A DNA stretch of 64,000 nt from an uncultured Gammaproteobacteria bacterium (GCA_964512695.1 CAZEJU010000001.1:7803-71802), one strand, 5' to 3'; shown: positions 23,771 through 45,502, counted from the first letter of the stretch. Notes: a model not told the origin generated them from the sequence alone. Made by a program: numbers and translations.

Positions 23771-23821
23771 ATGCATTATATAAAAGTTGAAAACATGATG
23801 GCAATGATGATGACTTCCTAA
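23771..23821 (+). promoter_or_regulatory. Met-rich leader peptide ORF (MHYIKVENMMAMMMTS; five Met in the last eight codons)
   Basis: ATG CAT TAT ATA AAA GTT GAA AAC ATG ATG GCA ATG ATG ATG ACT TCC TAA begins ~7 nt after the predicted TSS. Its stop abuts an antiterminator arm, ggaggt at 23823-23828. Confidence 0.55.
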
Positions 23822-23852
23822 CGGAGGTGTATCACGTGCTGTTTGTGAACGA

Positions 23853-23875
23853 CCTCCTTACTAGGAGGTTTTTTT
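23853..23875 (+). terminator. intrinsic terminator CCTCCTtactAGGAGG + T7 (attenuator terminator; 3' arm doubles as SD)
   Basis: Perfect 6-bp GC-rich stem followed by seven T. The upstream ggaggt can alternatively pair with acctcc. Confidence 0.6.
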
Positions 23876-23886: not shown

Positions 23887-24684
23887 ATGTTTGTGACCAT
23901 TATTAACGACTGTACAGATCATAACGTAATAGGAAGGCAACTAACCAGAGCAGCTGTCTTATTTTACGCGCCTGTTATTCCGGTTGGGGTTCACAACGAG
24001 TTAGAAGCTGCCGGAAACCTCATAGATGTTCTCGATGCTGCAGAAAAGGGAAAAGGAGTAATCATTCTGAATGTCGCACCCCGACATGGTAACGCGAAAA
24101 AGTGGCCGAATGGAACACCATTTGCGTACTTTAACGTCAATAATATACTTATTATAGCCACAATAGATGGCTACTCCTTGTCTCTTATAAAAAAACTCAG
24201 GATAATAGATTCCGTGAATCTCCTTGATATTCCTGATGTAGTTAACAGGATGCAAGAAGAACATGTCATTTCTTCAGAACTACGAGATCAAATCATTCAT
24301 ACGCAATTTCGAAGTTTCGAGTTCGCTCCCCGCGTAGCAAAGTGGCTGACCGAAAGAATAGAAATCCCCAGCACACCGTATGCTTTATCCCAAGTTCCTG
24401 ATGTACCAAAAGCTATATGGTATATCGATAATTTCGGAAACTGTAAAACCACACTCCTACCAGAAGATGTAAACTTCCAGGCAGGCAAAAAAGTTCATAC
24501 GGAATTAGGTGAGTTAGCTTGCTATAACAGATTAAAAGATGTCCCTGATGGAAAAACAGCTCTTATCATTGGTAGTTCAGGTTATAAAGATAAACGATTT
24601 ATCGAGTTAATAATCCAAGGTAAAAGCGCAGCACAGATATATGGTCTGCAAGTCGGATCATTAATCATAAATACTATTGGTTAA
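23887..24684 (+). CDS. SAM hydroxide adenosyltransferase family protein (DUF62; SalL/FlA fluorinase-chlorinase fold)
   Basis: N-terminal VTIINDCTD..; C-terminal IDNFGNCKTTL... closely parallels the fluorinase motif IDHPFGNVWTNI. Confidence 0.65.
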   Translation: MFVTIINDCTDHNVIGRQLTRAAVLFYAPVIPVGVHNELEAAGNLIDVLDAAEKGKGVIILNVAPRHGNAKKWPNGTPFAYFNVNNILIIATIDGYSLSLIKKLRIIDSVNLLDIPDVVNRMQEEHVISSELRDQIIHTQFRSFEFAPRVAKWLTERIEIPSTPYALSQVPDVPKAIWYIDNFGNCKTTLLPEDVNFQAGKKVHTELGELACYNRLKDVPDGKTALIIGSSGYKDKRFIELIIQGKSAAQIYGLQVGSLIINTIG

Positions 24685-24794
24685 ATTCGACACTACAGAA
24701 ATAACATTTATGGGAATTAAGATTACCATATTAAAAAATAACAGAAAAATACCTCAATGCCTGGACTAAAGGAATCTCGCATTACCGGCTATTA

Positions 24795-24823
24795 TTGACA
24801 AGCTCAGGCTGATAAGGTAAAGT
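24795..24823 (+). promoter_or_regulatory. sigma70-like promoter TTGACA-N17-TAAAGT
   Basis: Read directly from the sequence. Confidence 0.5.
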
Positions 24824-24828
24824 ATGGA

Positions 24829-25107
24829 AAGAATCAAGAGTGATGGGGAGACCCCAGTCTGATCTTCCTTTTCGCCTTAGTAGATTTCTACTTCGGCTTA
24901 AAGAGCGATCTTACCGGGGCGGGAGTTTTGGCTTCATGATCCATCCGGCAACCCTTCGGTAAGTTCAAACAATGCTTGAACAACGAGCAGGGTGCCAAAC
25001 CCAACCCAAGAGATGTGCTACCGAGTACATCTTCGTAAAGGAGGATTTGATCCTGAGACAATCGAAGGATAAACTATGTATTACCTCTCTTTACGAGAGG
25101 TTTTTTT
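24829..25107 (+). ncRNA. SAM-I (S-box) riboswitch with enlarged P3 and terminator expression platform
   Basis: Conserved S-box blocks AUCAAGAG (24833-40), CCGGCAACC (24945-53), GGUGCCAA (24981-88) and AGAGAUG. The P1 3' strand AAGAGA can alternatively pair with the UCUCUU 5' arm of the terminator 25084-25107. Confidence 0.6.
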
Positions 25108-25113
25108 ATTTAT

Positions 25114-28528: not shown

Positions 28529-28557
28529 TTGACAATTTATAATTGATCTGGTAAGAT
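28529..28557 (+). promoter_or_regulatory. sigma70-like promoter TTGACA-N17-TAAGAT
   Basis: Read directly from the sequence. Confidence 0.55.
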
Positions 28558-28569
28558 TATAAGACAAAT

Positions 28570-28620
28570 ATGCAACATACGTTTAATTCTATTATTGTCG
28601 TCCTTCTCGTTACCCATTAA
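28570..28620 (+). promoter_or_regulatory. branched-chain-amino-acid-rich leader peptide ORF (MQHTFNSIIVVLLVTH)
   Basis: ATG CAA CAT ACG TTT AAT TCT ATT ATT GTC GTC CTT CTC GTT ACC CAT TAA. Seven consecutive Ile/Val/Leu codons; near-leaderless. Confidence 0.55.
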
Positions 28621-28650
28621 TTGGGCGGAGGACTCGTGTTAAAAAACGTA

Positions 28651-28675
28651 CCCGCTCAAAGAAGCGGGTTTTTTT
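28651..28675 (+). terminator. intrinsic terminator CCCGCTcaaagaAGCGGG + T7
   Basis: Followed by the tiny ORF ATG TTT TAA, then the AAGGAG SD and the main ATG at 28697. Confidence 0.6.
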
Positions 28676-28696: not shown

Positions 28697-30556
28697 ATGA
28701 GTTCACATAAAGAATATGCAGGGCAAGCTGCTCTCAAATCCTTAGCTGAAAGATATATTAGAAGGTATGGCTTAAAAGCTGATTTTAATCCCGAAGAGAC
28801 AGGTGGAGTAATTTTCGCTCAAGACGGTACACCACTAAGGCAAGTCCGTGCTCCTTTCTGGAGAGCAGAAAAAGGTGCAAAGGGAACAGGCAGAAAAGAT
28901 ATGCCTAGAGTTTACACTGCTACAAATCCTGACCCGGATAAACCTAACTCAGGATTAGAATTAGAATTCCAAGCTTTCCATGCCATGACAGGAGAAATGG
29001 AACCAGTCATGGATGCAGACCACCCAGTACATCAGGGGTTATTGGAACACAATCGAAAAGCAAAAAATGGACACACTGAAAATAATGGAAATGGACTTGG
29101 AAACGGAAATGGGGTTAATGGATATGTTTTTGTAGAAGACGGCGCTGACTGGGACCATGACTTCCCAACTGGACCTAAAGAAGTAGGATTTAGCCCAGAG
29201 CTAACACGTCATACTTTGGAGGAAAACTTTCCTCCGAATGTAGATTCCGGAACACGAAACAGAGAGACATTATATGGTATTAGCACAGTTGTACAATTAG
29301 CAGAAGCAAATAACACACTTATCTCTCCGTTCTCGACTATACCGCATCGAGATATTACACAAATTGATACGAATCAACATCCATATGTCCAACGCATAGC
29401 GTTCGAACACATGGGTCCCGAAAAAGTTAAACACTTTACAGGTACTTCACTGCAAATTCACGTAGAAATCAAGGATTTAGAGTCAGCTTTACACGCTGCA
29501 AACCGTTGGCAGCTAGTTACACCTATTATGTATGCGGGAACACTTTCAGCACCTTTTATCGCAGGAGAAATAACACCCGATTTACAAGAACGGTATGGTC
29601 AAGTTCCCGACGTGGTTGGCGATCCACTAAAAGAAAGCACATTTGATACTATGACACAAGGACCCCATGAATCATATAGATATTATGGTAGATTAATAGG
29701 ATCACCTTCTGGAGGTGCAATGAGACAGCCTCTACCTGAAACATCTGAAGAATTTTGGTCTGCGGCTAATAATCTTCTAAAATCAGGAGAAAGTCCTTCC
29801 GTGGGTAGAGTAGCAGGACACCATGCAGATTTTCGTATTCGCCCTGACTTGGGACCGTATGGCACAATCGAGTTAGCAGTATTAGATACTGCCGGTGCGC
29901 GCATTCCAAATATCGTAGCCATTCAAGAATTCTCCAGAGCTTTGGGTTGGAAGTTACAGAGACAAGCAGGTAATTGGGAACAAATTATGGAAGATCCTCG
30001 TTTTAAATCGATATTCGGGCAAGCACCTTCTAAGGAAACATTCGAGACTGTTCACTGGAATACTATAGAGGTAGCAAAACATGGAAATAAGGCAATGATT
30101 ACTGGTATGGACGGAGAACAGCATTCTATAGCAGAGTTATGGAGTAAGTTAGTGGAATATGTACAAGAACCTATTGAAGAAACCGGTTATACTGGTTTAC
30201 CGGAAGGTATTATCGAGGTATTAGATAAAGCTTATCAAGACCCATCAGAACTATTTGATGTTTATAAAGACGAAAAAGGAGTTACTTCTGTCAAAGGATT
30301 CTATGAAACCGGAGTCGGAACTATGAGCCAGTGGGCCAGACAACGTGCAGAAGAGTTGAAAGCAAGAGGCTTAGCAGAAAAAGAAGCCATTATCGATACT
30401 ACACTTAATGTAGGCAAAAGCTTTCATGAACATGTAAAGTCAATGACACCCAAAGATCTTAATACTTTATATGTAAGCGCTAACAAGGATGTGGATAAAT
30501 CACCCCAATACAGCGCTAATGGTCAGAATCCATCATACCAAACCACTGCGTCCTAA
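28697..30556 (+). CDS. GCS2/YbdK-like carboxylate-amine ligase family protein
   Basis: Motif order parallels E. coli YbdK: GLELEFQAF; SLQIHVEI (GQHVHVG-like); HHADFRIRPDLGPYGTIELAVLDT (HWDIRP..GTVEVRVMDT-like). Confidence 0.5.
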   Translation: MSSHKEYAGQAALKSLAERYIRRYGLKADFNPEETGGVIFAQDGTPLRQVRAPFWRAEKGAKGTGRKDMPRVYTATNPDPDKPNSGLELEFQAFHAMTGEMEPVMDADHPVHQGLLEHNRKAKNGHTENNGNGLGNGNGVNGYVFVEDGADWDHDFPTGPKEVGFSPELTRHTLEENFPPNVDSGTRNRETLYGISTVVQLAEANNTLISPFSTIPHRDITQIDTNQHPYVQRIAFEHMGPEKVKHFTGTSLQIHVEIKDLESALHAANRWQLVTPIMYAGTLSAPFIAGEITPDLQERYGQVPDVVGDPLKESTFDTMTQGPHESYRYYGRLIGSPSGGAMRQPLPETSEEFWSAANNLLKSGESPSVGRVAGHHADFRIRPDLGPYGTIELAVLDTAGARIPNIVAIQEFSRALGWKLQRQAGNWEQIMEDPRFKSIFGQAPSKETFETVHWNTIEVAKHGNKAMITGMDGEQHSIAELWSKLVEYVQEPIEETGYTGLPEGIIEVLDKAYQDPSELFDVYKDEKGVTSVKGFYETGVGTMSQWARQRAEELKARGLAEKEAIIDTTLNVGKSFHEHVKSMTPKDLNTLYVSANKDVDKSPQYSANGQNPSYQTTAS

Positions 30557-30590
30557 CAAGTATCAACTATTGTTGTGATACAATAACAAC

Positions 30591-31676
30591 ATGATTCAAC
30601 AAGAAAGGCTTCTAAAAACATTCTTCGATCTTGTTTCAATCGATAGTCCTACAGGTGAAGAAGAACGCATTCGTAACGAACTCTCAAATCGTTTGAAAAA
30701 ACTTGGCGCTGAAACAGTGGAAAAAGATACCTATGGTAACCTCATAGCGAAATTCCATGGTGAAGGTGAACCGCTCATGATTAACTGCCATATGGACACT
30801 GTAGAGCCCGGTAGAGGCATAGTACCAATTATGAAAGGTGATAGAGTAGAAACCGACGGGAAGACAATTCTAGCGGGTGATGCAAAGGCAGGTTTAGCGA
30901 TTATCCTCGAAGCCTTAACTTCACTAAAAGAAGAAAATAAAAAACATGTACCTATCGAAATCGTCTTTACTGTAGAGGAGGAAACTGGACTTTATGGAGC
31001 TGTTAACCTCGACTATTCAAAAGTCTCCGCAAAAAAAGGATTTGTTTTTGATGGTTCAAAAGATCCTTGTACCTTAACCACATCAGCACCGGGATATTAT
31101 AGAGTCGATGTTACAATCATAGGAAGAGCGGCTCATGCGGGAGCCGAACCTGAAAAAGGTATTTCAGCTATTAAAATCGCTTCTGATATTATTACGAAGC
31201 TCGAGGTAGGCAGAATTGATGAAGAAACTACGGCAAACGTCGGTATTATAGAAGGCGGAAGCGCCCGGAATGCAGTACCAGAAAAAGCACATTTTAAGGC
31301 AGAAATTCGAAGTAGAAAGCTAGAAAAGCTTGAAAAACATGCAGGTCATTTCCAAGAAGTTTTTGAGGAAGCGATGAAGAAACATCCTGAAGCGAAAATA
31401 GAGATAGACATGCATTTAGAATTTAATCCATATATTTTCGATGAAAACCATCATGTTATTCAGCTTGCGAGTAAAGCGTTAAGCGAACTAGGACAAACAC
31501 CGAAACTTGCACCTTCGAATGGAGGATCCGATGTCAATATTTTTATTTCACACGATATAGAAACAGTGGCTGTAGGAATTGGCGATTATAATGCTCATAC
31601 AACCCGCGAATACGTCGTCATATCTGAAATAGTGTTAGGAGCTAGACTCTGCGAAAAACTCCTTGAGGCGAAGTAA
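30591..31676 (+). CDS. M20 family peptidase, peptidase T (PepT)-like
   Basis: LLKTFFDLVSIDSPTGEE; metal-binding HMDTV, GAVN/DGS region and E-rich catalytic region. Paralog of 39896. Confidence 0.7.
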   Translation: MIQQERLLKTFFDLVSIDSPTGEEERIRNELSNRLKKLGAETVEKDTYGNLIAKFHGEGEPLMINCHMDTVEPGRGIVPIMKGDRVETDGKTILAGDAKAGLAIILEALTSLKEENKKHVPIEIVFTVEEETGLYGAVNLDYSKVSAKKGFVFDGSKDPCTLTTSAPGYYRVDVTIIGRAAHAGAEPEKGISAIKIASDIITKLEVGRIDEETTANVGIIEGGSARNAVPEKAHFKAEIRSRKLEKLEKHAGHFQEVFEEAMKKHPEAKIEIDMHLEFNPYIFDENHHVIQLASKALSELGQTPKLAPSNGGSDVNIFISHDIETVAVGIGDYNAHTTREYVVISEIVLGARLCEKLLEAK

Positions 31677-31759: not shown

Positions 31760-31788
31760 TTGACACGTCATTAACCTCATGGTAGAAT
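31760..31788 (+). promoter_or_regulatory. sigma70 promoter TTGACA-N17-TAGAAT
   Basis: Read directly from the sequence. Confidence 0.6.
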
Positions 31789-31794
31789 TACTAT

Positions 31795-32108
31795 AACATA
31801 CGAATAACAGCGTTGATCCAGTATGGATGGGACTGGGGATTCTCCTTCATTAAAGTTACGCAAGGAGAGCGCTGGGTCTAATCAACCCCGGAGGCGAAAC
31901 CGTAAAAAGATCAGCAACATGTGTCATAGCTGCAGATAAGCACTGATTAAAAGCTGATTCTCGCTGATATAGAGCATGTCATGAATGAGAAGTCCTCCCA
32001 CGCCAAAGCTCCGGAGGATAAAACAAGGTGGCACCGTCCTTAAATAAACGTGGGACCCTTGTAAATAACTACAAAGTAATTTTGTGGTTGTTTACAAGGG
32101 TTTTTTTA
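31795..32108 (+). ncRNA. T-box riboswitch leader (antiterminator AAGG-UGGCACC-GUCC; terminator + T7)
   Basis: AAGGUGGCACCGUCC (~32026-32040) matches the T-box consensus AGGGUGGNACCGCG, including the 7-nt UGGNACC bulge. The 3' strand GGACCCUUG overlaps the 5' arm of the terminator 32057-32108. A candidate Stem I spans GUUGAUC...GAUCAGCAAC. Confidence 0.5.
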
Positions 32109-32120
32109 ATGGTAAAAACT

Positions 32121-33269
32121 ATGAAAGAAGGAGTTATTATACAAGTTGATCCGAGAATACCAGAGCCATATATAACATATATCCGGCAACGAAATGGGAA
32201 TGTCGGCAGAGATATAGCAGATCACCTTGGCCTACCCTATGTAGGAGACAGTCAGGGAGTACAACGTGCAGCTGATTATTATCCTGTACTTGCCAGAACT
32301 GTCACCAGAGAACATGCAAGAGTATTAGGTGCAGAAAATACAAGAGATTTCTATGGTCTTGCAGTTGAAGATTTAAATGTTGTGGGTAAATCTATACTCC
32401 ATCCTTCTATAAGCAGAAGACATCCTTTATTTCATAGAGAACAATTCGCACGAAAAGTCTTAGGTCAAACCCTTCCTGGTATAACCGGTTTCTCTAAAGA
32501 AGATTTATTAGCAGGGTATGAAAATGGTTACGCTGGATCACTGGATCATGCTTTAGATTACGAGCAGTATGGATTACGTGTTAAACTTCCAAATGAATCC
32601 GACGGCGTAGGACAATTTACTATACAAAGCAAGGATGATCTGGTTACTCTTCTAGAAGCTATTGAGGATAAAGATATCCACGAACAAGGACTGGTTCTGG
32701 AAGCTGATGTACAGAAACCTGAGACTATATCAGTCGGATTCGCGAGAATCGGTGATGAACAATTAAGTTTCATAGCCCAACAAAAAGATGCACGTGTGTT
32801 AGTAGATCATAAGGGCAAAACAATAGAGCAGAATAGATATGGTGGGGCATACGTCGTTGTGGCAAAAGGCCCTTTACAGTTACTATGCCAAGCCACGGAA
32901 GCAACTTCGCGTGAGAGATCTGCTGTAGAAAAAACACTGGCGTTTCATGAAGCCTATCAACGCATCTATGATCCTTTAGCTTCGAGATTAAGTTTCGATG
33001 TCATTTTCGGAGAAGGGAAAAACGGTCTCCCACTTGCAGGAATAAGTGACATTACTGGTAGGCTAGGTGGAACGTGTCCAGCACTCATGCAAGCTGCTGA
33101 AGAGTTCAGGAAAAACCCTTCTATTCAAATGGTAGGAACAGAAGTATCTCTTAATTATACTCCCCATGTACGATTTCCCTATGAAGATGAAGCTAAGGTG
33201 TATGTAGACCACCCAACACTCAGACTTACAGCAAGAGTAAACTCAAAACACAGAAGACTCGCAGCATAG
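32121..33269 (+). CDS. ATP-grasp-like protein
   Basis: GLRVKLPNESDGVGQFTIQSKDDL resembles the ATP-grasp central motif, but weakly. Start set at MKEGV downstream of the T-box terminator; the ORF-track start lies inside the leader. Confidence 0.35.
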   Translation: MKEGVIIQVDPRIPEPYITYIRQRNGNVGRDIADHLGLPYVGDSQGVQRAADYYPVLARTVTREHARVLGAENTRDFYGLAVEDLNVVGKSILHPSISRRHPLFHREQFARKVLGQTLPGITGFSKEDLLAGYENGYAGSLDHALDYEQYGLRVKLPNESDGVGQFTIQSKDDLVTLLEAIEDKDIHEQGLVLEADVQKPETISVGFARIGDEQLSFIAQQKDARVLVDHKGKTIEQNRYGGAYVVVAKGPLQLLCQATEATSRERSAVEKTLAFHEAYQRIYDPLASRLSFDVIFGEGKNGLPLAGISDITGRLGGTCPALMQAAEEFRKNPSIQMVGTEVSLNYTPHVRFPYEDEAKVYVDHPTLRLTARVNSKHRRLAA

Positions 33270-33278
33270 ACATGAATC

Positions 33279-33307
33279 TTGACATTACACATGGGCTATC
33301 CTATAAT
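33279..33307 (+). promoter_or_regulatory. consensus sigma70 promoter TTGACA-N17-TATAAT
   Basis: Read directly from the sequence. Confidence 0.65.
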
Positions 33308-33314
33308 CATTTAT

Positions 33315-33371
33315 ATGATACGACAAGCAGTAAATTTCTTTTTCTTTTTTACCCCACTCGCGGGGAGGTAA
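33315..33371 (+). promoter_or_regulatory. Phe-rich leader peptide ORF (MIRQAVNFFFFFTPLAGR; five consecutive Phe codons)
   Basis: ATG ATA CGA CAA GCA GTA AAT TTC TTT TTC TTT TTT ACC CCA CTC GCG GGG AGG TAA. Leaderless. Its 3' end runs through the hairpin CCCCACUCGCGGGG, whose GCGGGG can alternatively pair with the CCCCGC of the terminator. Confidence 0.6.
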
Positions 33372-33398
33372 TTTCGTGATCACACGAAATACTCTATA

Positions 33399-33422
33399 CC
33401 CCGCATAAGGCGGGGTTTTTTT
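33399..33422 (+). terminator. intrinsic terminator CCCCGCataagGCGGGG + T7
   Basis: Directly followed by the ATG of the tiny ORF MEEFYGND, then the main start at 33436. Confidence 0.6.
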
Positions 33423-33435
33423 ATGGAGGAATTCT

Positions 33436-35136
33436 ATGGCAATGACTGAACAAGACATACTAAAAGGTACAATGAACGGCCGAGTTGATTCAGGTTTAAA
33501 GGCAACTGATAACACAGCAGTACCTTTAGGTGAACAATCTCATGGCGGCATAGTCCGAAATACCGATGGACTATGGTGGCTACCTGCCTCACCACATCGC
33601 GGAAGGGGTTTCGAATGGCAAGACTCAAAGGATCCTAGATATAACGCAACACATTTAAGTGAAGTTGGCTACCACCCTGAACCTCTAGAACCACAGAGAA
33701 CCGTAGAAGTATTAGCTGAACATTTACAAGAAAAAGTTGAAGGAAGAATTCCGGAAACAGAAACCCATGGAGTTGAAGTTGAAGGGACTACCTATGATCG
33801 AGAAGGCAATCTCTTAGCAATTCCTGTCGATCAGAAAACAAATCCCGAATTATTAGCTTCTACACATGAAGAAGCCACAAAACTGGAAAACGGACAGTAC
33901 CCGAGAAAACCATTTGAAATAGCTCGAGCAGTAGCCAGTGCAACCCAGCGGGGTATCGCAATCGCTGAAAATCATAGCGGAATACTTGTCCTCACAGAAG
34001 TACCAGAAGGTGGAACATTTCATGATGCTGAAAACAGTACATTTCCATATATAGTACGTCAACAAGGAAGAATTCGAAGACACGCATTAGCACACCTTGA
34101 TGAGATACCTGAAGAAACATGGGCTCTCTATCGACGTTACGGCGTAGATATTCGAGAACTACTGGAATCTAATAGACCGCTCAATTGGCCTACTCATGGA
34201 TTGCATCATCATGCCGGTGCGCCACAAATAGAAGGATTAGTCGACCCGAGAGCCGCACTGGTTATGGGAAAAATGCGTCAAACACTTTTTGCAAAATTAC
34301 TGCAATACCCAGCATTTAATAGCAGTAGATTATATGAAAAAGAAACTGATCTCCGCGGAGTCCGATCTGTCGCAAAACACGCGCTTGCTACAACAGTTAA
34401 TAATGATTTACCTGATAGTGCTGAAGAGCTAATGTGGGATGTGCAACGGGCAATGAGAGAGGGAGAAATCGCTACGCCTTCACGATATCCTTATAAAGGC
34501 CAACACGATGTCGTTCGATTTAGGATGGATGGAAAACATAAAACTGTCGAGTCTATTAAAGATCCTATGACACCTGACCTATTAACAGCGCTTCATCTCG
34601 TGTTCGGCAATCAACTCCTGGATACCATCGGCCAGCAAGCTCTCGTACAAGTAGGTGGAGATGAAAGCAAAGTTATGGGTTATTTACAATCTATACATCC
34701 TGAGCTTTTTGCCACATTGCCTTCATTAGGTCCTGAGTCATCACATAGTGCAGATATGCAGTTTAATAAAGCAGGGTATCTAGGAACATTCCGCGGGAAA
34801 ACTTATGCTGAGCTTATAAGAGATGCACGTGCTGTCGTGGAAGGGGTAGGCAAACATTATACAGCACTTGAGACACAAGCTAAAATTGTAAATCACGTAC
34901 TAGGATACCAAACAGATATTCCTCATCCACAGACTGATCTAGCAACATTTATGGGAATAAAAAATGGAGTTTACCAACCAAATAGTATGAGAGCAGGAAT
35001 TCTAACGGATTATAAAACGGGTATTCCTACAAATGAACTGTTAGTTGTCCAGGCTGAAGCAACGAAATTACAAGCTCAAGCTTTAGCACAAGTGAGAGAT
35101 GATAAAGATCTTCTCGAAGTGTATGGATTACAGTAA
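33436..35136 (+). CDS. GCS2/YbdK-like carboxylate-amine ligase family paralog
   Basis: THGLHHHAG and VVRFRMDGKHKTVESI align with the GxHVHVG and HWDIRP..GTVEVR motifs of the family. Paralog of 28697, 41323 and 56332. Confidence 0.4.
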   Translation: MAMTEQDILKGTMNGRVDSGLKATDNTAVPLGEQSHGGIVRNTDGLWWLPASPHRGRGFEWQDSKDPRYNATHLSEVGYHPEPLEPQRTVEVLAEHLQEKVEGRIPETETHGVEVEGTTYDREGNLLAIPVDQKTNPELLASTHEEATKLENGQYPRKPFEIARAVASATQRGIAIAENHSGILVLTEVPEGGTFHDAENSTFPYIVRQQGRIRRHALAHLDEIPEETWALYRRYGVDIRELLESNRPLNWPTHGLHHHAGAPQIEGLVDPRAALVMGKMRQTLFAKLLQYPAFNSSRLYEKETDLRGVRSVAKHALATTVNNDLPDSAEELMWDVQRAMREGEIATPSRYPYKGQHDVVRFRMDGKHKTVESIKDPMTPDLLTALHLVFGNQLLDTIGQQALVQVGGDESKVMGYLQSIHPELFATLPSLGPESSHSADMQFNKAGYLGTFRGKTYAELIRDARAVVEGVGKHYTALETQAKIVNHVLGYQTDIPHPQTDLATFMGIKNGVYQPNSMRAGILTDYKTGIPTNELLVVQAEATKLQAQALAQVRDDKDLLEVYGLQ

Positions 35137-35139: not shown

Positions 35140-35982
35140 TTATTCTCCTGACCAGGACATGGCATTCATAGCTATTTGAGAATCCATATCCAAATTCTTC
35201 AAAGTAAGTGGCAGAAAAGATACATTACTTAATAAGACAGCTCGTTCTAAGGGGGTATTTTCCAGAATAGGAGCATACAGTCGTCCTTCAATACCATCTC
35301 GGACTTCCTTCACATTAACAGAATCAGTAACACCAACCACAGGTACTGTAATTGAGTGTTTTTCTATCTGTAAATATTTCGAGGGCCAGATAAGATCTGG
35401 ATTTTCACTATCTGAAACGAAAAACTGTCTACCATTCGCAGGAACTACTAAACCTGATACAGCAGGTCTGGTATCAAAACTCTGGCCTTCATCACCCCAT
35501 AACATCTCACGAATGTCCTGGTGTACGTAACCTCTTCCACCTGAAAGGAGCGCAGCGCCATTCGCGTTGGAATAGAGCAATCCGAATGCTATACCTATCT
35601 CATCTAATTCTATGGCAGCAGGGGATGCAGCACGCTCTGAAAGTGATAAAGAAGCAGTACGCATTTGTTGCATCTGACTTATAGCACCTCTATGCTTCTG
35701 CATAACCATTTCTCTAACAGATTCACGTTCTTTATTAAAAGCTGACCATGTAGCAGGGAGAACGTCTATATATGCAGTTATACCCAATTCTTCGCGAATT
35801 GTTTTCTCTAATGCAGCCACCCTATCCATAGCGATCAATCGCTCACGGTCAGCGTGGATACTAGCGCCAATATCCTTACCTGCCAGAGCTTTTAAATAAG
35901 CAGCATGATACTCAGCATATAACGTGCGTAGTTGTTGGGTGTAGATTTGCAGCAATCTCGAATTTTCTCTACGTTCTATCAT
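35140..35982 (-). CDS. hypothetical protein
   Basis: 280-aa ORF downstream of tRNA-Val(GAC) on the minus strand. Confidence 0.35.
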   Translation of the reverse strand: MIERRENSRLLQIYTQQLRTLYAEYHAAYLKALAGKDIGASIHADRERLIAMDRVAALEKTIREELGITAYIDVLPATWSAFNKERESVREMVMQKHRGAISQMQQMRTASLSLSERAASPAAIELDEIGIAFGLLYSNANGAALLSGGRGYVHQDIREMLWGDEGQSFDTRPAVSGLVVPANGRQFFVSDSENPDLIWPSKYLQIEKHSITVPVVGVTDSVNVKEVRDGIEGRLYAPILENTPLERAVLLSNVSFLPLTLKNLDMDSQIAMNAMSWSGE

Positions 35983-36100
35983 GGGTAATATTATATATTA
36001 TAGGATCTAATTCACACAAGCATACGGGTCGGTATTTTCCAGCACAGTTATTTATTAAGCAGTTTGTAATATTAGGAAGACTATTGTAGTTAGTAAAGTG

Positions 36101-36174
36101 TGGGGCCAAGTGGACTTGAACCACTGACCTTTTCAATGTCAATGAAACGCTCTAGCCAACTGAGCTATGGCCCC
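36101..36174 (-). tRNA. tRNA-Val (anticodon GAC)
   Basis: Acceptor GGGGCCA/UGGCCCC, D-loop AGUUGGCUA, anticodon loop UUGACAU, T-loop UUCAAGU, discriminator A. Confidence 0.8.
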
Positions 36175-37163: not shown

Positions 37164-37192
37164 TTGACGAACTGTATGACTCATGGTATATT
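37164..37192 (+). promoter_or_regulatory. sigma70-like promoter TTGACG-N17-TATATT
   Basis: Read directly from the sequence. Confidence 0.55.
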
Positions 37193-37202
37193 GCTCAAAT
37201 AT

Positions 37203-37247
37203 ATGAAATCCACTTTTTTAGTTTGTTGTGTTACAACTCTGCTTTAA
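37203..37247 (+). promoter_or_regulatory. leader peptide ORF MKSTFLVCCVTTLL (tandem Cys-Cys, Thr-Thr, Leu-Leu)
   Basis: ATG AAA TCC ACT TTT TTA GTT TGT TGT GTT ACA ACT CTG CTT TAA. Its stop abuts GGGG of the antiterminator, which pairs with CCCC of the terminator. Confidence 0.45.
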
Positions 37248-37274
37248 GGGGTTGTAGTTATCGTGGAATATGCA

Positions 37275-37296
37275 CCCCGCCAAGCGGGGTTTTTTT
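37275..37296 (+). terminator. intrinsic terminator CCCCGCcaaGCGGGG + T7 directly abutting the start codon
   Basis: 6-bp GC stem, 3-nt loop, 7 T, then ATG at 37297. Confidence 0.6.
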
Positions 37297-38346: not shown

Positions 38347-38376
38347 TTGACGTCCAAATAGATATAACTCTATAAT
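38347..38376 (+). promoter_or_regulatory. sigma70-like promoter TTGACG-N18-TATAAT
   Basis: Read directly from the sequence. Confidence 0.55.
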
Positions 38377-38390
38377 ACAAAGTGTTCTAT

Positions 38391-38438
38391 ATGAATATCA
38401 TGAATAACAATGGAGCAGTAAAGAAGAACCTCTCGTAA
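38391..38438 (+). promoter_or_regulatory. Asn-rich leader peptide ORF (MNIMNNNGAVKKNLS; 5 Asn, including NNN)
   Basis: ATG AAT ATC ATG AAT AAC AAT GGA GCA GTA AAG AAG AAC CTC TCG TAA. The 3' end overlaps the hairpin CCUCUCguaaGAGGGG, whose 3' arm can pair with the CCCCUUAC of the terminator. Confidence 0.55.
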
Positions 38439-38469
38439 GAGGGGTCTTTCTGTTGTCTGCACAATAGTA

Positions 38470-38492
38470 CCCCTTACAGAAGGGGTTTTTTT
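38470..38492 (+). terminator. intrinsic terminator CCCCTTacagAAGGGG + T7
   Basis: Followed by the tiny ORF MDFLLNQ (38493-38516), then a ~100-nt spacer carrying a GGAGG SD before the 38616 start. Confidence 0.6.
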
Positions 38493-38615: not shown

Positions 38616-39899
38616 ATGAAAGAAGGACTAAAAGTATTATCACACTCATCTATAGAGGAATATCTATTCGATACTGATGTCGAAGACCGATATTATATTC
38701 CGTGGCGTGCAGCCGCAGAAGCAGCAGCAAGAATCGAACTAGGACAACAAGTTTTGACAATCCTTCCAAAACGTGAAGCTTTTAACGAATACCTCACCCT
38801 TTTACAAATGAAATTACTGGGAGGAAGAAGTATTCCAACGCTGTTTACACCTGATGAAGATTATCTTATGGATACTGATATTAAAAAATATCTTATGGAT
38901 ACTCTTCGTGGCAGATTTAACAGAAGTACCACTATTCATCCCTATCAAGCAACACCTGAATTTTATGATTGGGCGGGGGAGTTAGAACAGAAAGGCGTTA
39001 AAATTTACGCAGATAGAAAACGCAAAGACTTACGTGACTGGTGGGGACATAAAGGAGCATATCATCGATGGATAGATGATCTCGATACTCCCACTCAATT
39101 TGAAGGATTACATTTACCAATACCTCGAGGATACGTGGCTCAAAACCATGGAGAATTACTTGTAGCGAAAAAACTTCTACCAACTGACACTGTTGTGGCA
39201 AAACCAATTTTCGGAGCTGGTGGATTTCAAATAGAGTTCTTAGACGACGATAATATCGATACATATGAATGGCCTACCGACCCCACAACGGAAAAACCCA
39301 TGCCAGTTGCTGTACAAGAAAGACTAAGAATTGGTCGAGATGAATTCGGCGAACGTGTTTTTTCCTACCAGTTTGAGGGCCCACAACCAATGGGACGATT
39401 AACACGACAAATTATGGATCAGGAAACTGGGAAAGTCTGGAGTGGGAATAGAGTACCAGCAGATGTTACACCTGAGTTTGAACGAAGAGCAAAGGATGTA
39501 GTTCATACTTTAGTCATGAAAACAAAACCAAAAGGAGACGGGGGAGTCGATATAGCAGATGTAGATGGAGAACCAGTAATCATCGAAGTAAACGGAGGAA
39601 GGCCAACTGGCGCACATATGCCGAAACGATTTCAACAAGCCTTCGCGCCTGAAGCTCCACATTTCGTATTTCAGAAAGTAGAACCAAACGGATATTCACC
39701 ATTCGATATTTGGGATAGACTCGAAGGAGGAAACTTGCCTCGCACGAATGAAACTCTAGTATTTCAGCGTGAAAGACAACGCGGGGTTTTTCCATTAGTT
39801 TGGTTACCGAACTCTTGGGGAATGCTTGCAAGCTTCGGAGGATCATTCGAAGAAGCAAATAATCAGTTACTCGCAGCTCGTGATAGAATAGGCGTATGA
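38616..39899 (+). CDS. ATP-grasp ligase family protein
   Basis: VVAKPIFGAGGFQIEF (central domain) and EPVIIEVNGGRPTGAHMP (C-domain E.N.RP motif) in canonical order. Confidence 0.5.
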   Translation: MKEGLKVLSHSSIEEYLFDTDVEDRYYIPWRAAAEAAARIELGQQVLTILPKREAFNEYLTLLQMKLLGGRSIPTLFTPDEDYLMDTDIKKYLMDTLRGRFNRSTTIHPYQATPEFYDWAGELEQKGVKIYADRKRKDLRDWWGHKGAYHRWIDDLDTPTQFEGLHLPIPRGYVAQNHGELLVAKKLLPTDTVVAKPIFGAGGFQIEFLDDDNIDTYEWPTDPTTEKPMPVAVQERLRIGRDEFGERVFSYQFEGPQPMGRLTRQIMDQETGKVWSGNRVPADVTPEFERRAKDVVHTLVMKTKPKGDGGVDIADVDGEPVIIEVNGGRPTGAHMPKRFQQAFAPEAPHFVFQKVEPNGYSPFDIWDRLEGGNLPRTNETLVFQRERQRGVFPLVWLPNSWGMLASFGGSFEEANNQLLAARDRIGV

Positions 39900-40966
39900 C
39901 TGAGAAAAGGGTAGTACAAATATTTTTCGATTTAGTAAAAATTGACAGCCCTTCTGGACATGAAGAGAACGTTTTAGAGTATATAGAAGCATATTGCAAA
40001 AAACTCTCACTAAATACACAGAGGGATTCTTATGGAAACCTCATCGTTAAAAAAGAAGGAGTAGGTGAACCACTACTTCTCTGTTCACATGCCGATACAG
40101 TAGAACCAGGGAAAAATATTCAACCACGAATAGAGAACGGAATTATAAAAAGCGATGGTACGACGATACTTGGTGCTGATAATAAATCGTCTATTGCAGC
40201 GATTCTCGAGGCTGTGAAACAATTAGTTGAAGAAAAAAAACACCATAGGCCTCTAGAGCTTGTGTTTACAAAATCTGAAGAAGTTGCTAGCTGGGGAGCA
40301 GTATATCTGGACTACAAACAACTTCAAGCAAAAGAAGGATATACGATAGATAACGCAAATCCTGTAGGAACAATTGTCTACGCGTCTCCTTTTTACTATC
40401 GTTTCGATATTACAGTATTCGGTAAAGATGCCCATGCTTCAAGACCGCATGAAGGAATTCATGCTTTAAAAATCGCTGCAAGCGCCATTCATAAAATAAA
40501 ACTTGGAAAAATTGATACAAATACACTTGCCAATATCGGCATGATCCAATCAGGCCATGTACGCAACACAATTCCAGGTTCAGTAGTGCTTATGGGAGAA
40601 GTACGAAGCTATTCCGATGAGAAAGCTCAAAGGTACTTAAACAAAATTATTGATACATTTAGAAAAACTGCAGAAAAAACGGGAGGATCTATAACGTACG
40701 AAACGCTGAAAGAAAATGCTGGGTATATATATAAAACAAATGATCCCTTTGTAAAAAAAACGATGCAGATTATGAAAAAGATTGGAGTAGAAACGAACTT
40801 AATTAAAACTCTGGGCTGTGCCGATGCAAATGTGATCCAAGAGCATGGAATTAAAATGCTCGACCTGGGCGACGGCTCACGCAGAGCGCATACACTAAAG
40901 GAGTCAATACCGGTAGCACAGTTACAAAGAGTCGTTGAGCTAGTATTAGCTCTTGCTGGAGCATAA
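39896..40966 (+). CDS. M20 family peptidase, PepT-like (paralog of 30591)
   Basis: VVQIFFDLVKIDSPSGHEE; HADTVEPG metal site. Overlaps the stop of 38616 by 4 nt, so the two are translationally coupled. Confidence 0.7.
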   Translation: MTEKRVVQIFFDLVKIDSPSGHEENVLEYIEAYCKKLSLNTQRDSYGNLIVKKEGVGEPLLLCSHADTVEPGKNIQPRIENGIIKSDGTTILGADNKSSIAAILEAVKQLVEEKKHHRPLELVFTKSEEVASWGAVYLDYKQLQAKEGYTIDNANPVGTIVYASPFYYRFDITVFGKDAHASRPHEGIHALKIAASAIHKIKLGKIDTNTLANIGMIQSGHVRNTIPGSVVLMGEVRSYSDEKAQRYLNKIIDTFRKTAEKTGGSITYETLKENAGYIYKTNDPFVKKTMQIMKKIGVETNLIKTLGCADANVIQEHGIKMLDLGDGSRRAHTLKESIPVAQLQRVVELVLALAGA

Positions 40967-41067: not shown

Positions 41068-41097
41068 TTGCTTAAGGGAGCGTTTATGCGATATACT
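41068..41097 (+). promoter_or_regulatory. sigma70-like promoter TTGCTT-N18-TATACT
   Basis: Read directly from the sequence. Confidence 0.45.
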
Positions 41098-41106
41098 TTC
41101 TTCAAC

Positions 41107-41154
41107 ATGAGTAAATCAGTTTTCGGAACTACCACTACAACAACCCTTTCCTAA
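41107..41154 (+). promoter_or_regulatory. Thr-rich leader peptide ORF (MSKSVFGTTTTTTLS; six consecutive Thr codons)
   Basis: ATG AGT AAA TCA GTT TTC GGA ACT ACC ACT ACA ACA ACC CTT TCC TAA. Its stop abuts GGGAGGUUG (41155-63), which pairs with CAACCUCC (41180-87), the 5' arm of the terminator. Confidence 0.6.
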
Positions 41155-41182
41155 GGGAGGTTGGCGTGGTATTATTTAACAA

Positions 41183-41204
41183 CCTCCTTAATAGGAGGTT
41201 TTTT
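41183..41204 (+). terminator. intrinsic terminator CCTCCTtaatAGGAGG + T6
   Basis: Perfect 6-bp stem plus a T-run. A ~118-nt spacer follows before the 41323 start. Confidence 0.55.
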
Positions 41205-41322: not shown

Positions 41323-43107
41323 ATGACAAACGAACAAGAACTAAAAATAGGAGGACAAAAATCAGCGACGAAAGTTGATTTCGCTCATGCTGAGCATCCT
41401 TTAACCCATGCACGTCTTTATGAAGCAGTAGAAGAACGACGTGGTACCGTAGGTCCTGTAGGAGATGTTCCCAGAGCATATATAAGGGACTCTGCAACTG
41501 CGGCAATTATAGTAAGCACACCTTCAAAAGAGGTGGTTGCTGCTGTTCGATCACCTCTATGGATTCCTAGTGGTGTACGAAATGGAAGAGTAGAATTTGG
41601 TGGAAGACCAGATAAAGATCATATCGAATTTTCTTACTTACGTGAAACTGATTGGGAGTATGTAAAAGAATCTGCGAGGAAAAGATTAGACGCACTTAAA
41701 AAAGCCACAAAACTTAACGAATTTGTTGCTGAGCATGGAGGCTATCTCGGTATAGGAACAGAGCCGGAAGCATTTCTCCTTCATGAAGATGGCAGTGTCG
41801 TACAGATAAACGCTGGAGAGTCATTTTTAGGCCAGAGAGAAGACGCTCTGCCACCGATAGCGACACCCAGAGAGTATGCCCGCGCACGAGCGGAACTTAT
41901 TCAAAATCGAAGACAGCAATTACAGGCTGGTCAAATTGCCTTCGACGGCTCAGTTCGACCTACGGGGAAGATGAGCGAAACAAGAATAACCCAAGAAGGT
42001 GATGAAGCAATATATAATGTAGCTATCACGCAAGCGCTCCATACACGATACACCCATTGTGCAGATCCATTAACACGACAAATCATGGATCAGCTTGCTA
42101 AAACAGAAAACTATAGAGATTTTGACGAAATCTATAATCATGCTTCAACGATAACATACTGGGGTCCTCCCTCTGCATCGCATGCAGCTATAGGAATGCA
42201 TCAAAGACGCGAAAATGGGACAACCTTTGTACCAGAATGGGAAGCAGTAGCTCATGCAGATGTCATAAATAGCGATTTCGCAACTGCTGATGAACTACTG
42301 ATGATGTCAACGCCAGTCATATTCGGAGAACAACCTCAAGTTTTACATAAAGGTACATGGAGAAAACCACGCGACTATCGTCATTTTATGCGACATGTCG
42401 TTGACACTACCTATCCAGCACCTTTTGTCGGCTCGCCAGAAGCATTACGAGCAAATGTTACCGACAGTATACTCTCCGGCAGATCGCACACACTTGATAG
42501 ATCTGCATATACTGCAGATGTACATGGTTTATTAGTCCCTAACTATCATGGAAGAGTACGGATTAGACAAAAGGTTGATGTTACTCATAAAGGAGAAATT
42601 AAACAATCATGCCGTATAGAAGAAACAGGATGTTCACAGTCCGCATCTTTACCTGATGAATTGGCAAGAAATGCACTTATGCAGCTTAGAGCTGTTGCTG
42701 TCGACGAAGCCCTCGCAGCAGGTATGCATCCCTCTGAATTCTATAAAGAGAAATATCCGCATATGACAACTTGGCAAAAGCAGCAAGATATCGTACTCCA
42801 TGCAAATCTCTATGGTTTCCGACATCCTTTACCATCTGCTGTGATAATGGAAAATATTAGGCTTGTACGAGATATCGGTAAGAGATATCCTGTACTCGGT
42901 CTTCAAGCCGTACTCGCAGAAACACGCTTGAGAAATTTATTTGATGATCCAGCACGCTCTTTAGAAGTTTATGAACAAAAACCTATTGGTCCATTTAGCG
43001 AAGTTCTCCAGAATGAATTACATAATGGTACTTCACCTGTAGAACTCGCTCAAAAAGTAGCCGCTTACCAGGATACAGTAGCGGAAAAGATATTAAGAGT
43101 TCCATAG
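41323..43107 (+). CDS. GCS2/YbdK-like carboxylate-amine ligase family paralog
   Basis: EPEAFLLHED, SHAAIGMHQ and HGRVRIRQKVDVTHKGEI align with the family motifs, weakly. Lies immediately upstream of thrS. Confidence 0.35.
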   Translation: MTNEQELKIGGQKSATKVDFAHAEHPLTHARLYEAVEERRGTVGPVGDVPRAYIRDSATAAIIVSTPSKEVVAAVRSPLWIPSGVRNGRVEFGGRPDKDHIEFSYLRETDWEYVKESARKRLDALKKATKLNEFVAEHGGYLGIGTEPEAFLLHEDGSVVQINAGESFLGQREDALPPIATPREYARARAELIQNRRQQLQAGQIAFDGSVRPTGKMSETRITQEGDEAIYNVAITQALHTRYTHCADPLTRQIMDQLAKTENYRDFDEIYNHASTITYWGPPSASHAAIGMHQRRENGTTFVPEWEAVAHADVINSDFATADELLMMSTPVIFGEQPQVLHKGTWRKPRDYRHFMRHVVDTTYPAPFVGSPEALRANVTDSILSGRSHTLDRSAYTADVHGLLVPNYHGRVRIRQKVDVTHKGEIKQSCRIEETGCSQSASLPDELARNALMQLRAVAVDEALAAGMHPSEFYKEKYPHMTTWQKQQDIVLHANLYGFRHPLPSAVIMENIRLVRDIGKRYPVLGLQAVLAETRLRNLFDDPARSLEVYEQKPIGPFSEVLQNELHNGTSPVELAQKVAAYQDTVAEKILRVP

Positions 43108-43197: not shown

Positions 43198-44937
43198 ATG
43201 GATAATAACGAAAAATTACAAAACTTACGACACTCAACAGCGCATTTACTTGCGGCTGCAGTCATGGAATTATGGCCTGATACGAAAAGAACAATAGGTC
43301 CTGCGATAGAAACTGGATTTTACTATGACTTCGATTTCGTAAAACCAATCTCAGTGGAAGACCTTCCTAAAATCGAACAAAAAATGCGGGAAATTCTTAA
43401 GTCATGGACAGGATTTATCAAAGAAGAAGTCTCAATAGAAGAAGCAAAAAAGAAAGTAGCAGGAAATGAATATAAACTCGAACTTATAGAAGAATTCGCG
43501 AAAGATAATAAAACCCTTACATTCTATACATCAGGTAATTATGAAGATTTATGTAAAGGCGGTCATGTAGAAAATCCAAAAATGGAAATCGGAGCATTTA
43601 AACTCCTCTCTCTCGCAGGCGCGTACTGGCGGGGAGACGAGAAAAACAAGATGTTAACTCGCATCTATGGTACTGCTTTTCCGACGAAACAAGAATTAGA
43701 AGAGTACCTAACCATGCTTGAGGAAGCGAAAAAACGAGACCATAAAAAATTGGGGAAGGAACTAGATCTCTTTATTTTTTCTCCTCTTGTAGGAGGGGGA
43801 CTTGCACTCTGGACACCCCGGGGGACAATTATTCGTGAAGAATTAGATAATTTTATTTGGCATATAAGAAAAAAGTTCGGTTATCAGAAAGTAACAATTC
43901 CTCATATTACAAAAAAAGATCTCTATGAGACATCCGGACACTGGGAAAAATTTGCAAATGAACTATTTAAAATCCAAACCCGTGAAGAAGATTTATTTGC
44001 GATGAAGCCTATGAATTGTCCTCACCATACACAACTCTACGCTTATAAACCTCGAAGCTACCGAGAGTTGCCACTACGTTATTCAGAAACAACTATGTGC
44101 TATAGAGACGAGCAAAGCGGAGAACTAGCTGGTTTATCCCGAGTTCGTGCTTTTACACAAGACGATGCGCATGTTTTTCTCAGAAAATCGCAAATAGAAG
44201 AAGAATTCTTACGAACTTGGGATATCGTAGATGATTTCTATAAAACTTTTGGCTTTGAGCTGAGAGTAAGGCTCTCACTTCATGATCCTGAACATATGGA
44301 AAAGTATCTAGGCGATGCGGGAATTTGGAAGGATGCTGAATCAAAAATTCGGGCGGTAGCAGAAAAAAGAAAAGCTAATACTTTTGAAGGAATTGGTGAA
44401 GCTGCAATGTATGGACCTAAACTAGACTTTATGACAAAAGATGCTCTTGGACGTGAATGGCAAGTAGCTACCATTCAACTTGATTTAAATCAACCAAAAC
44501 GCTTTGGCTTAACATGTATTAATGAAGAAGGAAAACAAGAAGACATCGTCATGATGCATTGTGCGGTTATGGGATCAATCGAAAGATTTGCTTCGATTTT
44601 AATCGAACATTACGCGGGAGCATTTCCACTCTGGCTTGCGCCAGTTCAAATCGAACTTTTACCAATAGCTGATCGCCATACAGAATATGCCCAATCAGTG
44701 TATAATCAGCTATCTGCAGCCAATATTCGTGTAAATCTTAATACCGAAAAAGCAACACTCCAGGCAAAAATACGTGAGGCTACTTTACAAAAAGTACCAT
44801 TTATGGGTATAATAGGCGATAAGGAAATTGCTGCAGAAGCGATTTCAGTCCGAACAAGAGAAGGAAAAGATGTCGGCCAACAACAGGTTGGTACATTTAT
44901 AACGGAGTTACAGGAAAAAATTGATAAAAAAGAATAG
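43198..44937 (+). CDS. thrS: threonyl-tRNA synthetase (lacking N-terminal TGS domain)
   Basis: HSTAHLLAAAV..GPAIETGFYYDFDF (editing domain); class II motifs; C-terminal anticodon-binding domain. Confidence 0.85.
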   Translation: MDNNEKLQNLRHSTAHLLAAAVMELWPDTKRTIGPAIETGFYYDFDFVKPISVEDLPKIEQKMREILKSWTGFIKEEVSIEEAKKKVAGNEYKLELIEEFAKDNKTLTFYTSGNYEDLCKGGHVENPKMEIGAFKLLSLAGAYWRGDEKNKMLTRIYGTAFPTKQELEEYLTMLEEAKKRDHKKLGKELDLFIFSPLVGGGLALWTPRGTIIREELDNFIWHIRKKFGYQKVTIPHITKKDLYETSGHWEKFANELFKIQTREEDLFAMKPMNCPHHTQLYAYKPRSYRELPLRYSETTMCYRDEQSGELAGLSRVRAFTQDDAHVFLRKSQIEEEFLRTWDIVDDFYKTFGFELRVRLSLHDPEHMEKYLGDAGIWKDAESKIRAVAEKRKANTFEGIGEAAMYGPKLDFMTKDALGREWQVATIQLDLNQPKRFGLTCINEEGKQEDIVMMHCAVMGSIERFASILIEHYAGAFPLWLAPVQIELLPIADRHTEYAQSVYNQLSAANIRVNLNTEKATLQAKIREATLQKVPFMGIIGDKEIAAEAISVRTREGKDVGQQQVGTFITELQEKIDKKE

Positions 44938-45502
44938 ATATCAACAAGAAAATAAAAAGTTTTATCGGACGAATGAGCGGATATTCGCACAAACGCTCAG
45001 GGTTGTCGATTCTGAGGGAAAGCAAATAGGTGTTTTCTCCAAACAAGAAGCGTTAGAAAAAGCGCGAGAAGAAGAGTTAGACCTTGTTGAAATAGCGCCA
45101 CAAGCGCAACCACCTGTAGCAAAAATCATAGATTTCCGAAAATTCCTCTATCAAGAAGAAAAAAAGAAAAAAGAAGAGAAAAAGAAAGCTAAAACCAGTG
45201 ATACAAAAGAAGTTCGACTCGGTCCTTTCATGTCTGACAACGATTTACAGGTCATGATAAACCGATGTAGAGATTTCCTAACAGAAGGAGATAAAGTACG
45301 ATTAGTCGTTAAGTTTCGAGGAAGACAAGTTACTCGATCAGATTTCGGTTTCGGTGTCGTCAAAAAAGTGATAGCAGCCGTTAACGATATTTCAAAAGTC
45401 GATAAAGATGCAAAAATGGAGGGGAGACAAATAGTAGCCGTTCTCTCTCCAGAAAGGAAAAAACAACATGGGCAAGATCAAAGTGAGAAAATCAGCAGCT
45501 AA
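44921..45502 (+). CDS. infC: translation initiation factor IF-3
   Basis: RVVDSEGKQIGV..EALEKAREEELDLVEI..PPVAKIIDFRKF. The start codon is uncertain and may be non-AUG, as usual for infC. Overlaps the thrS end. Confidence 0.8.
   Translation: MIKKNRYQQENKKFYRTNERIFAQTLRVVDSEGKQIGVFSKQEALEKAREEELDLVEIAPQAQPPVAKIIDFRKFLYQEEKKKKEEKKKAKTSDTKEVRLGPFMSDNDLQVMINRCRDFLTEGDKVRLVVKFRGRQVTRSDFGFGVVKKVIAAVNDISKVDKDAKMEGRQIVAVLSPERKKQHGQDQSEKISS

Follow-up and report, generated by a model that had tools for sequence, protein, structure and literature searches.

Transcription attenuation by a ribosome on a short leader ORF is best described for the trp, his, thr and ilv leaders, for which classical ribosome-mediated attenuation has been modelled (PMC1183508), and, in the case of phenylalanine, for pheL and pheM, the leaders of pheA and pheST in E. 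coli and other gamma-proteobacteria. A passage of PMC3082878 describes pheL as short and as containing internal runs of Phe codons. In mycobacteria, leaderless short ORFs encoding polycysteine act as cysteine-responsive attenuators (bioRxiv 10.1101/834739), and T-box riboswitches (RF00230) read the same kind of signal, the charging state of a specific tRNA. Here we describe a locus which has in common with pheL and pheM a Phe-codon ORF, alternative antiterminator and terminator structures and, as we propose, read-through when Phe-tRNA is scarce. From its sequence organization it is very probably a ribosome-mediated leader-peptide transcription attenuator that senses charged tRNA-Phe. A search of the accessible literature retrieved no description of ribosome-mediated leader-peptide attenuation in CPR/Patescibacteria and nothing on regulated GCS2-like paralogs.

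The element is located on the + strand of the 64-kb window, i.e., the whole stretch of 64,000 nucleotides that was analysed. Its promoter, detected by promoter scan and by the sequence itself, consists of the -35 hexamer TTGACA (33279-33284) and the -10 hexamer TATAAT (33302-33307) with a 17-nt spacer, and represents the sole 12/12 sigma-70-type match within 28-38 kb. The leader ORF MIRQAVNFFFFFTPLAGR (33315-33371, +), recognised from the sequence and from the equivalent Phe-run ORFs of relatives, comprises 18 codons followed by the stop codon TAA (33369-33371). Considering that the -10 box ends 7 nt 5' of the leader ATG at 33315, the leader mRNA is probably leaderless. All elements of the 18-codon ORF behind TTGACA-N17-TATAAT, with which the original prediction began, are present, with small (one-base) coordinate corrections. 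Five Phe codons in a row (TTC TTT TTC TTT TTT, 33336-33350) form the proposed sensing site, a designation based on synonymous variation and on the count of (TTY)5 runs, of which the 64-kb window contains two versus 0.08 expected. The 3' end of the leader ORF includes region 1 (CCCCAC, 33352-33357), able to form a weak hairpin with region 2 (GCGGGG, 33360-33365), the antiterminator strand, which lies in leader codons 16-17, 3 nt before the stop codon. Further downstream on the same strand follow a middle hairpin (TTTCGTG atca CACGAAA, 33371-33390), which is enclosed by the antiterminator 2:3, and the intrinsic terminator ACCCCGCauaagGCGGGGT (33398-33416), identified by scan and folding, whose regions 3:4 (ACCCCGC ataag GCGGGGT) build a GC-rich stem of 7 bp with a T7 tract at 33416-33422. 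The Shine-Dalgarno sequence GGAGG (33425-33429), 13 nt from the terminator, belongs to the regulated gene (33436-35136, +; ATG at 33436), encoding a 566-aa protein with a YbdK/GCS2 fold.

Computing the energies of the alternative structures, we obtained -13.6 kcal/mol for the terminator 3:4 and -22.3 kcal/mol for the antiterminator 2:3 together with the enclosed middle hairpin, which by itself contributes -6.5 kcal/mol. The predicted 1:2 hairpin also exists, but it is weak, with 4 bp and -7.1 kcal/mol. The 112-nt leader folds with -31.5 kcal/mol (z = -3.64 vs shuffles), its full-length MFE being a nested 1:4 + 2:3 structure, and a perfect complement of 6 nt, as region 2 shows to the terminator 5' arm, is attained by 0.85% of shuffles. 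We further applied masked folding, in which a ribosome footprint was blocked on either the Phe codons or the stop codon and the transcript ended before region 4. With the footprint on the Phe codons, GCGGGG pairs with 6 of the 7 nt in the terminator 5' arm, whereas a footprint at the stop codon abolishes this pairing altogether (0 of 7 nt), which reproduces the trp/pheA-type logic as well as the pairing of region 2 (GCGGGG) with region 3 (CCCCGC) that had been predicted.

According to the proposed mechanism, transcription would start at the leader AUG or immediately beside it, and translation of the 18-codon ORF by a ribosome would begin. With plentiful Phe-tRNA it would reach the TAA at 33369-33371 and cover region 2 (33360-33365), so that the terminator hairpin (33398-33416) with its U7 tract would form and transcription would stop before the 566-aa gene. 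With scarce Phe-tRNA, the ribosome would stall on the five Phe codons (33336-33350) and leave region 2 free to pair with the terminator 5' arm once this is transcribed, in which case no terminator would form and RNA polymerase would read into the gene. The response to Phe-tRNA is thus what we infer from this arrangement. For a full leader carrying a stalled ribosome, the terminator state is slightly favoured at equilibrium (-25.3 vs -22.3 kcal/mol for the antiterminator), and hence the switch would have to be kinetic, i.e., under co-transcriptional control. Since the 1:2 hairpin is weak and folding finds 2:3 more stable than 1:2 even in ribosome-free RNA, termination would depend mainly on a ribosome that covers region 2 while it sits at the stop codon; leader RNA that is not translated may be read through rather than terminated. 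We know of no studies on transcription-translation coupling in CPR bacteria.

The FFFFF ORF, whose conservation the original prediction had made its test, is conserved in relatives. Among the 23 related loci whose upstream DNA was readable (34-42% protein identity), 22, comprising all 10 genome loci and 12 of the 13 metagenome loci, have a short ORF that starts with ATG and includes a Phe-codon run. A 27%-identity homologue (L035) has no leader. The relatives contribute 20 distinct leader peptides, for example MSKRNINQKFFFFFFNHAHAG, MKITFFRFFFFAFNPENAG, MTNLSLSFGFFFFNLVRRGD and MITASTSFGFFFFFTPQMAG, or MSKKLISFFFFAFNPTKAG, MLHQISFFFFFSPSRRGYMM and MKKIKLTNFFFFFFNPNLGGVVF, in which the residues flanking the Phe run vary freely. 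The 100 Phe codons counted in 19 leaders are 30 TTC and 70 TTT, and the leaders of two loci (L012 and L013) differ by synonymous TTC/TTT swaps only. A -10-like hexamer ending 6-8 nt 5' of the leader ATG in 14 of 19 leaders suggests leaderless initiation across the relatives as well. In every leader the stop codon falls within or just 3' of a G-rich segment complementary to the terminator 5' arm, and an intrinsic terminator is present in all orthologous leaders examined. The perfect complement between antiterminator segment and terminator arm spans 5-7 nt, with a chance of at most 0.0085 per leader as judged by shuffles of 11 leaders, and the two partners covary (GCGGGG/CCCCGC, GGCGGG/CCCGCC). 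Masked folding of these 11 leaders, whose proteins are 34-40% identical, gave alike behaviour in all 11, with 5-7 nt of the terminator arm paired when the ribosome is stalled versus 0-3 when it is at the stop codon. RNAalifold on a MAFFT alignment of 17 leaders yielded no consensus structure, owing to register shifts and competing structures, and per-sequence masked folding with shuffling was used in its place.

These comparisons also bear on whether the hairpin is nothing but the terminator of the upstream DUF3182 gene (32110-33269), with the promoter match and the small ORF arising by chance in an AT-rich spacer. Such a reading could draw on the fact that no other terminator lies between the DUF3182 stop codon (33269) and the hairpin. 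The leader, however, stays with the downstream gene as a whole while the upstream gene differs between genomes, which excludes a mere upstream-gene terminator, and in addition the complementarity of region 2 and terminator arm is non-random in 11 out of 11 leaders tested and the promoter match is 12/12, leaving this explanation scarcely credible.

In three loci (L010 3691-3910, L011 3687-3910, L030 368-590), two tandem Phe-rich attenuators, MKTSVVLKNNFFFFFTRYAG followed by MNIRTIQQFCFYFTLF, each with its own terminator, precede the Phe-type gene. The Phe-codon tract of the first tandem leader is able to pair with a downstream AAAAGAAAAAGAAAA stretch in L010 and L011. In another locus (L004, 2679-2801), the ATG frame of the leader reads the pyrimidine tract as FSFSFL, reflecting possibly an assembly indel or a real frameshift; since its close relatives L022-L024 have FFFFF(F) in frame, an indel is likely. 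Such cases could speak for an RNA-only or protein-binding switch, in which the U/C-rich tract UUUCUUUUUCUUUUUU would bind a protein or another RNA segment and the small ORF would be incidental: the pyrimidine tract is conserved at the nucleotide level too, it has a pairing partner in L010 and L011, and the ATG frame of L004 gives no pure Phe run. Nevertheless, we consider this highly improbable, because 19 of 20 distinct leaders have the tract set between an ATG and an in-frame stop codon such that it is read as Phe, C is confined to third codon positions within the runs, and the runs are interrupted only rarely and then by entire codons (GGC/GGT, TAC, GCA, CGA, GTT). Moreover, the stop codon always adjoins region 2, the -10 box lies 6-8 nt before the ATG in the 14 of 19 leaders mentioned, the A-rich pairing partner is missing from the other leaders, and sibling leaders repeat the same layout with other amino acids. 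We therefore retain the leader-peptide attenuator as the preferred reading of the conserved element.

The regulated 566-aa protein is a member of a family that escapes sequence-based annotation. Neither it nor 31 family members gave any Pfam or NCBIfam match above cut-off (including PF04107 GCS2 and YbdK). Word-indexed searches, started from the single sequence (against 5.8 billion proteins) or from a profile, returned the query alone. An exhaustive HMMER search of 1.84 billion representative proteins, in turn, recovered 42 relatives (clusters), indicating a rare family that is almost confined to Microgenomates (CPR/Patescibacteria). A scan of GTDB representative genomes, for which the 9-sequence alignment was used as the 31-sequence alignment was too divergent, located relatives in Microgenomates/Patescibacteria MAGs, namely of Roizmanbacteria, Woesebacteria and UBA1406 and in two labelled Gammaproteobacteria. 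The window itself encodes a short ThrRS (579 aa), a short PheT (662 aa) and DUF5660/DUF5665 proteins; these features would fit a CPR-type genome, and judging from the relatives the host is presumably of Microgenomates type.

An AlphaFold2 model built from 31 family members (pLDDT 91.8, pTM 0.92) gave a value of 30.0 (326 residues, 2.9 A) in structural comparison with the YbdK homologue 1tt4_A, and the same comparison gave 18-22 for glutamate-cysteine ligases, 17 for Dop/PafA and 13 for glutamine synthetases; Foldseek agrees with the assignment to a YbdK/GCS2-type fold. For orientation, the named structures of YbdK/GCS2 carboxylate-amine ligases and glutamate-cysteine ligases are PDB 1tt4, 1r8g, 2gwc and 1v4g. 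The model thus places the 566-aa protein in the GCL/YbdK/GS carboxylate-amine ligase fold superfamily, so that the designation as GCS2-like ligase paralog is right at the level of the fold, but no sequence model recognises the protein. Within the family, E114, E116, E138, E145, R310, R361, E372 and D381 are invariant and H257 and H259 are conserved to at least 90%, a Glu/His/Arg pattern typical of this ligase superfamily. As for its substrate, we infer that the enzyme acts on phenylalanine, or on a phenylalanine conjugate or precursor, in a response to amino-acid starvation. Given the proposed induction by Phe-tRNA shortage, the ligase fold and the repeated coupling to hydrolases in relatives, our best guess would be a ligase/hydrolase route that supplies L-Phe, starting from its D-isomer, a conjugate or a precursor; with the same fold, the protein may alternatively be a Dop-like hydrolase or a PafA-like protein tagging enzyme for amino-acid recycling. 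The convergent 280-aa gene (35140-35982) has no Pfam match and is unlike the gene at the equivalent position in the related locus L001.

The original prediction had regarded the ligase-family gene as an unrelated target of a Phe sensor. This part did not hold, because the 566-aa gene turned out to belong to a set of ligase-fold paralogs that are each preceded by a sensor for their respective amino acid. The 619-, 594- and 584-aa proteins of the window are distant paralogs of the 566-aa protein (hhalign 94%, 98% and 95%, respectively), while hhalign did not link the 493-aa protein and the 459-aa Pfam-GCS2 protein to the profile of the Phe-type family. A leader with an Ile/Val/Leu run, MQHTFNSIIVVLLVTH (28570-28620; unit 28529-28669, with promoter and terminator), precedes genes at 28697-31676 that encode the 619-aa YbdK-like paralog and a PepT-like M20 peptidase (30591-31676). 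The Thr leader MRYTFFNMSKSVFGTTTTTTLS (41086-41154; unit 41086-41200), with six Thr codons and a terminator, lies before the 594-aa paralog (41323-43107), which in turn abuts thrS (starting at 43198) and thereby the genes thrS-infC-rpmI-rplT-pheS-pheT; as no terminator was detected in the 90-nt gap, the Thr sensor may also influence thrS. Furthermore, a Met-rich leader, MHYIKVENMMAMMMTS (23771-23821; unit 23771-23870), with antiterminator and terminator is found before a SAM_HAT_C gene (23887-24684). The SAM_HAT_C (SAM hydroxide adenosyltransferase-like) family converts SAM to adenosine and methionine, and the enzyme would accordingly free methionine from SAM, which would make a coherent response to Met starvation. 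The Met, Ile/Val/Leu and Thr leaders passed the same masking test. Two additional leaders, each with promoter and terminator, were weaker in this test and their antiterminator logic is less clear, namely the probably Asn-rich MNIMNNNGAVKKNLS (38391-38438; unit 38349-38486), before an ATP-grasp gene overlapping a second M20 gene (39896-40966), and MKSTFLVCCVTTLL (37203-37247; unit 37164-37290), before a 330-aa gene with faint ATP-grasp similarity.

For tyrosine, the window contains a T-box-like leader (55853-56134, within a long leader at 55812-56330) before the 459-aa Pfam-GCS2 gene (56332-57711), which ends 12 nt before tyrS (57724-58920). Against the Rfam T-box model it reached 58.2 bits (E 3.9e-12 when 556 nt were searched), below the gathering threshold of 93; sequence inspection revealed a UAC triplet after GAA as candidate Tyr specifier and a GGTGGTACCACGG box. 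In a MAG named Candidatus Levybacteria (L037), the orthologue of the 459-aa gene is also located beside tyrS and overlaps an M20 gene, and in place of the T-box it has a YYY leader peptide, MKNIFEKLINYYYSTVR, with a terminator. Two other structured leaders of approximately 300 nt, each with promoter and terminator, are found before the 584-aa paralog (24790-25110) and before the DUF3182 gene (31760-32108). No Rfam family matched either of them, which leaves a T-box unsupported at these positions; they could represent riboswitches of an unknown kind or T-boxes that have diverged. The leader at 31760-32108 has a T-box-like GGTGGCACCG at 32027-32036.

The series of leaders also helps to judge whether the element reports general translation or poly-Phe elongation, i.e., ribosome activity, slow or slippery decoding of UUU/UUC or a hydrophobic nascent peptide, instead of charged tRNA-Phe. 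The architecture ties termination to the position of the ribosome whatever causes the stalling, and U-rich Phe runs are slippery, with frameshifting on E. coli pheL reported in a passage of PMC3082878. A general sensor, however, could do without a conserved run of codons from a single family, and the leaders of the neighbouring paralogs are enriched in different amino acids (Met, Ile/Val/Leu, Thr and Tyr), which argues for amino-acid-specific sensing. Together, these points render the general-sensor reading very unlikely, and sensing of charged tRNA-Phe remains the reading we favour.

The pheS region itself, thrS-infC-rpmI-rplT-pheS-pheT (43198-49372), has no such device before pheS. As predicted, pheST lacks a Phe leader, with neither a terminator nor a Phe-rich small ORF upstream of pheS. 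The inverted-repeat element that had been noticed at this position could be located as well, as an imperfect repeat (46106-46125 / 46171-46190) with 80% complementarity that overlaps, and would thereby sequester, the start codon of pheS (ATG at 46182); compared with shuffles, it folds only modestly better (z = -2.1). Overlapping inverted repeats were also seen between rpmI and rplT (45667-45732), and both sets may serve the autoregulation of the ribosomal protein genes and of pheST. A PheS identical to that of the window occurs in run SRR8893623. The ThrRS (thrS, 579 aa, 43198-44937) and PheT (pheT, 662 aa, 47384-49372) are shorter than the usual bacterial versions. Elsewhere in the window, eight tRNA genes occur singly or in small groups (10720-18393 and 36100-36174), and the + strand exhibits a persistent positive AT skew.

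The neighbourhoods of the relatives repeat the association of ligase-fold genes with amino-acid-specific leaders. Another paralog, the equivalent of the 619-aa protein, directly precedes the Phe-type gene in nine related loci (L005, L006, L014, L022, L024, L025, L027, L033 and L034), where it has an Ile/Leu/Val-rich leader, and behind more distant members of the family Peptidase_C26 or M20 genes are found. GCS2-superfamily genes followed by Peptidase_C26 (gamma-glutamyl-hydrolase-like) genes were observed in L038 (2501-5925), L017 (3001-5576) and L021 (3001-5902), and in L038 an MR_MLE (racemase/epimerase superfamily) gene is placed between the GCS2 homologue and the C26 hydrolase. The GCS2/MR_MLE/C26 gene order hints at a possible pathway of ligation, conversion and hydrolysis.

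Tentatively, and with chances a little short of even, Microgenomates may possess an amino-acid-indexed system of YbdK/GCS2 and ATP-grasp ligase paralogs, each induced by its own charged-tRNA sensor (Phe, Thr, Ile/Val/Leu, Met and Tyr leaders or the Tyr T-box), in which many of the ligases are translationally coupled to M20/C26 hydrolases and some stand beside the matching aminoacyl-tRNA synthetase. If this is true, the enzymes would constitute a new route to individual L-amino acids. One possibility would then be that the ligase makes a transient gamma-glutamyl or N-acyl intermediate, which is converted and finally released by the hydrolase, a route analogous to the carrier-mediated LysX/LysK synthesis or, alternatively, to the N-succinyl-amino-acid racemase pathway of D-to-L salvage. 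The CPR lineage is generally regarded as amino-acid auxotrophic. Leader-peptide attenuators indicate which amino acid a downstream gene serves and can in this way assign amino acids to CPR hypothetical proteins; in the present case they label an uncharacterised family of 42 clusters and its distant paralogs with Phe, Ile/Val/Leu, Thr and Tyr. For the 566-aa gene, "hypothetical protein" is thereby replaced by the testable hypothesis of a Phe-specific ATP-dependent ligase working with M20/C26 hydrolases.

Compared with the described systems, the Phe leader is distinct in sequence. An Rfam scan at gathering thresholds gave no match at this position, and although the RF01859 Phe_leader model aligned over its full length (33314-33424), the 26.3 bits obtained versus a gathering threshold of 55 (E 1.4) do not qualify it as a member. 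From pheL and pheM it differs in the host, of CPR/Microgenomates type and not a gamma-proteobacterium, in the target, a YbdK-fold enzyme and neither pheA nor pheST, and in the leader ORF, which is apparently leaderless. It resembles the mycobacterial polycysteine ORFs in that a regulatory ORF begins where the transcript does, contains consecutive codons for a single amino acid and controls what lies downstream, but differs in amino acid and phylum and in its intrinsic terminator with an explicit antiterminator; moreover, leaderless initiation is deduced here from promoter spacing alone, in contrast to the mycobacterial leaderless ORFs. Unlike a T-box, the Phe element lacks RNA domains for tRNA binding and would sense via the translating ribosome, and a search with the RF00230 model in E-value mode gave no signal at the Phe leader. 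The kinetic switch needed here is likewise a property of the classical attenuators. Next to the Phe leader, the window contains counterparts of the classical amino-acid leaders in its thr-like (TTTTTT), ilv-like (IIVVLLV) and Met-rich leaders; whereas the classical attenuators govern biosynthetic operons, those found here precede peptidases, a SAM-hydrolase-like gene and ligase-fold genes that stand singly. The proposed mechanism is a classical one, like that of pheL, pheM and trpL, and what is new is the set of enzymes that it regulates.
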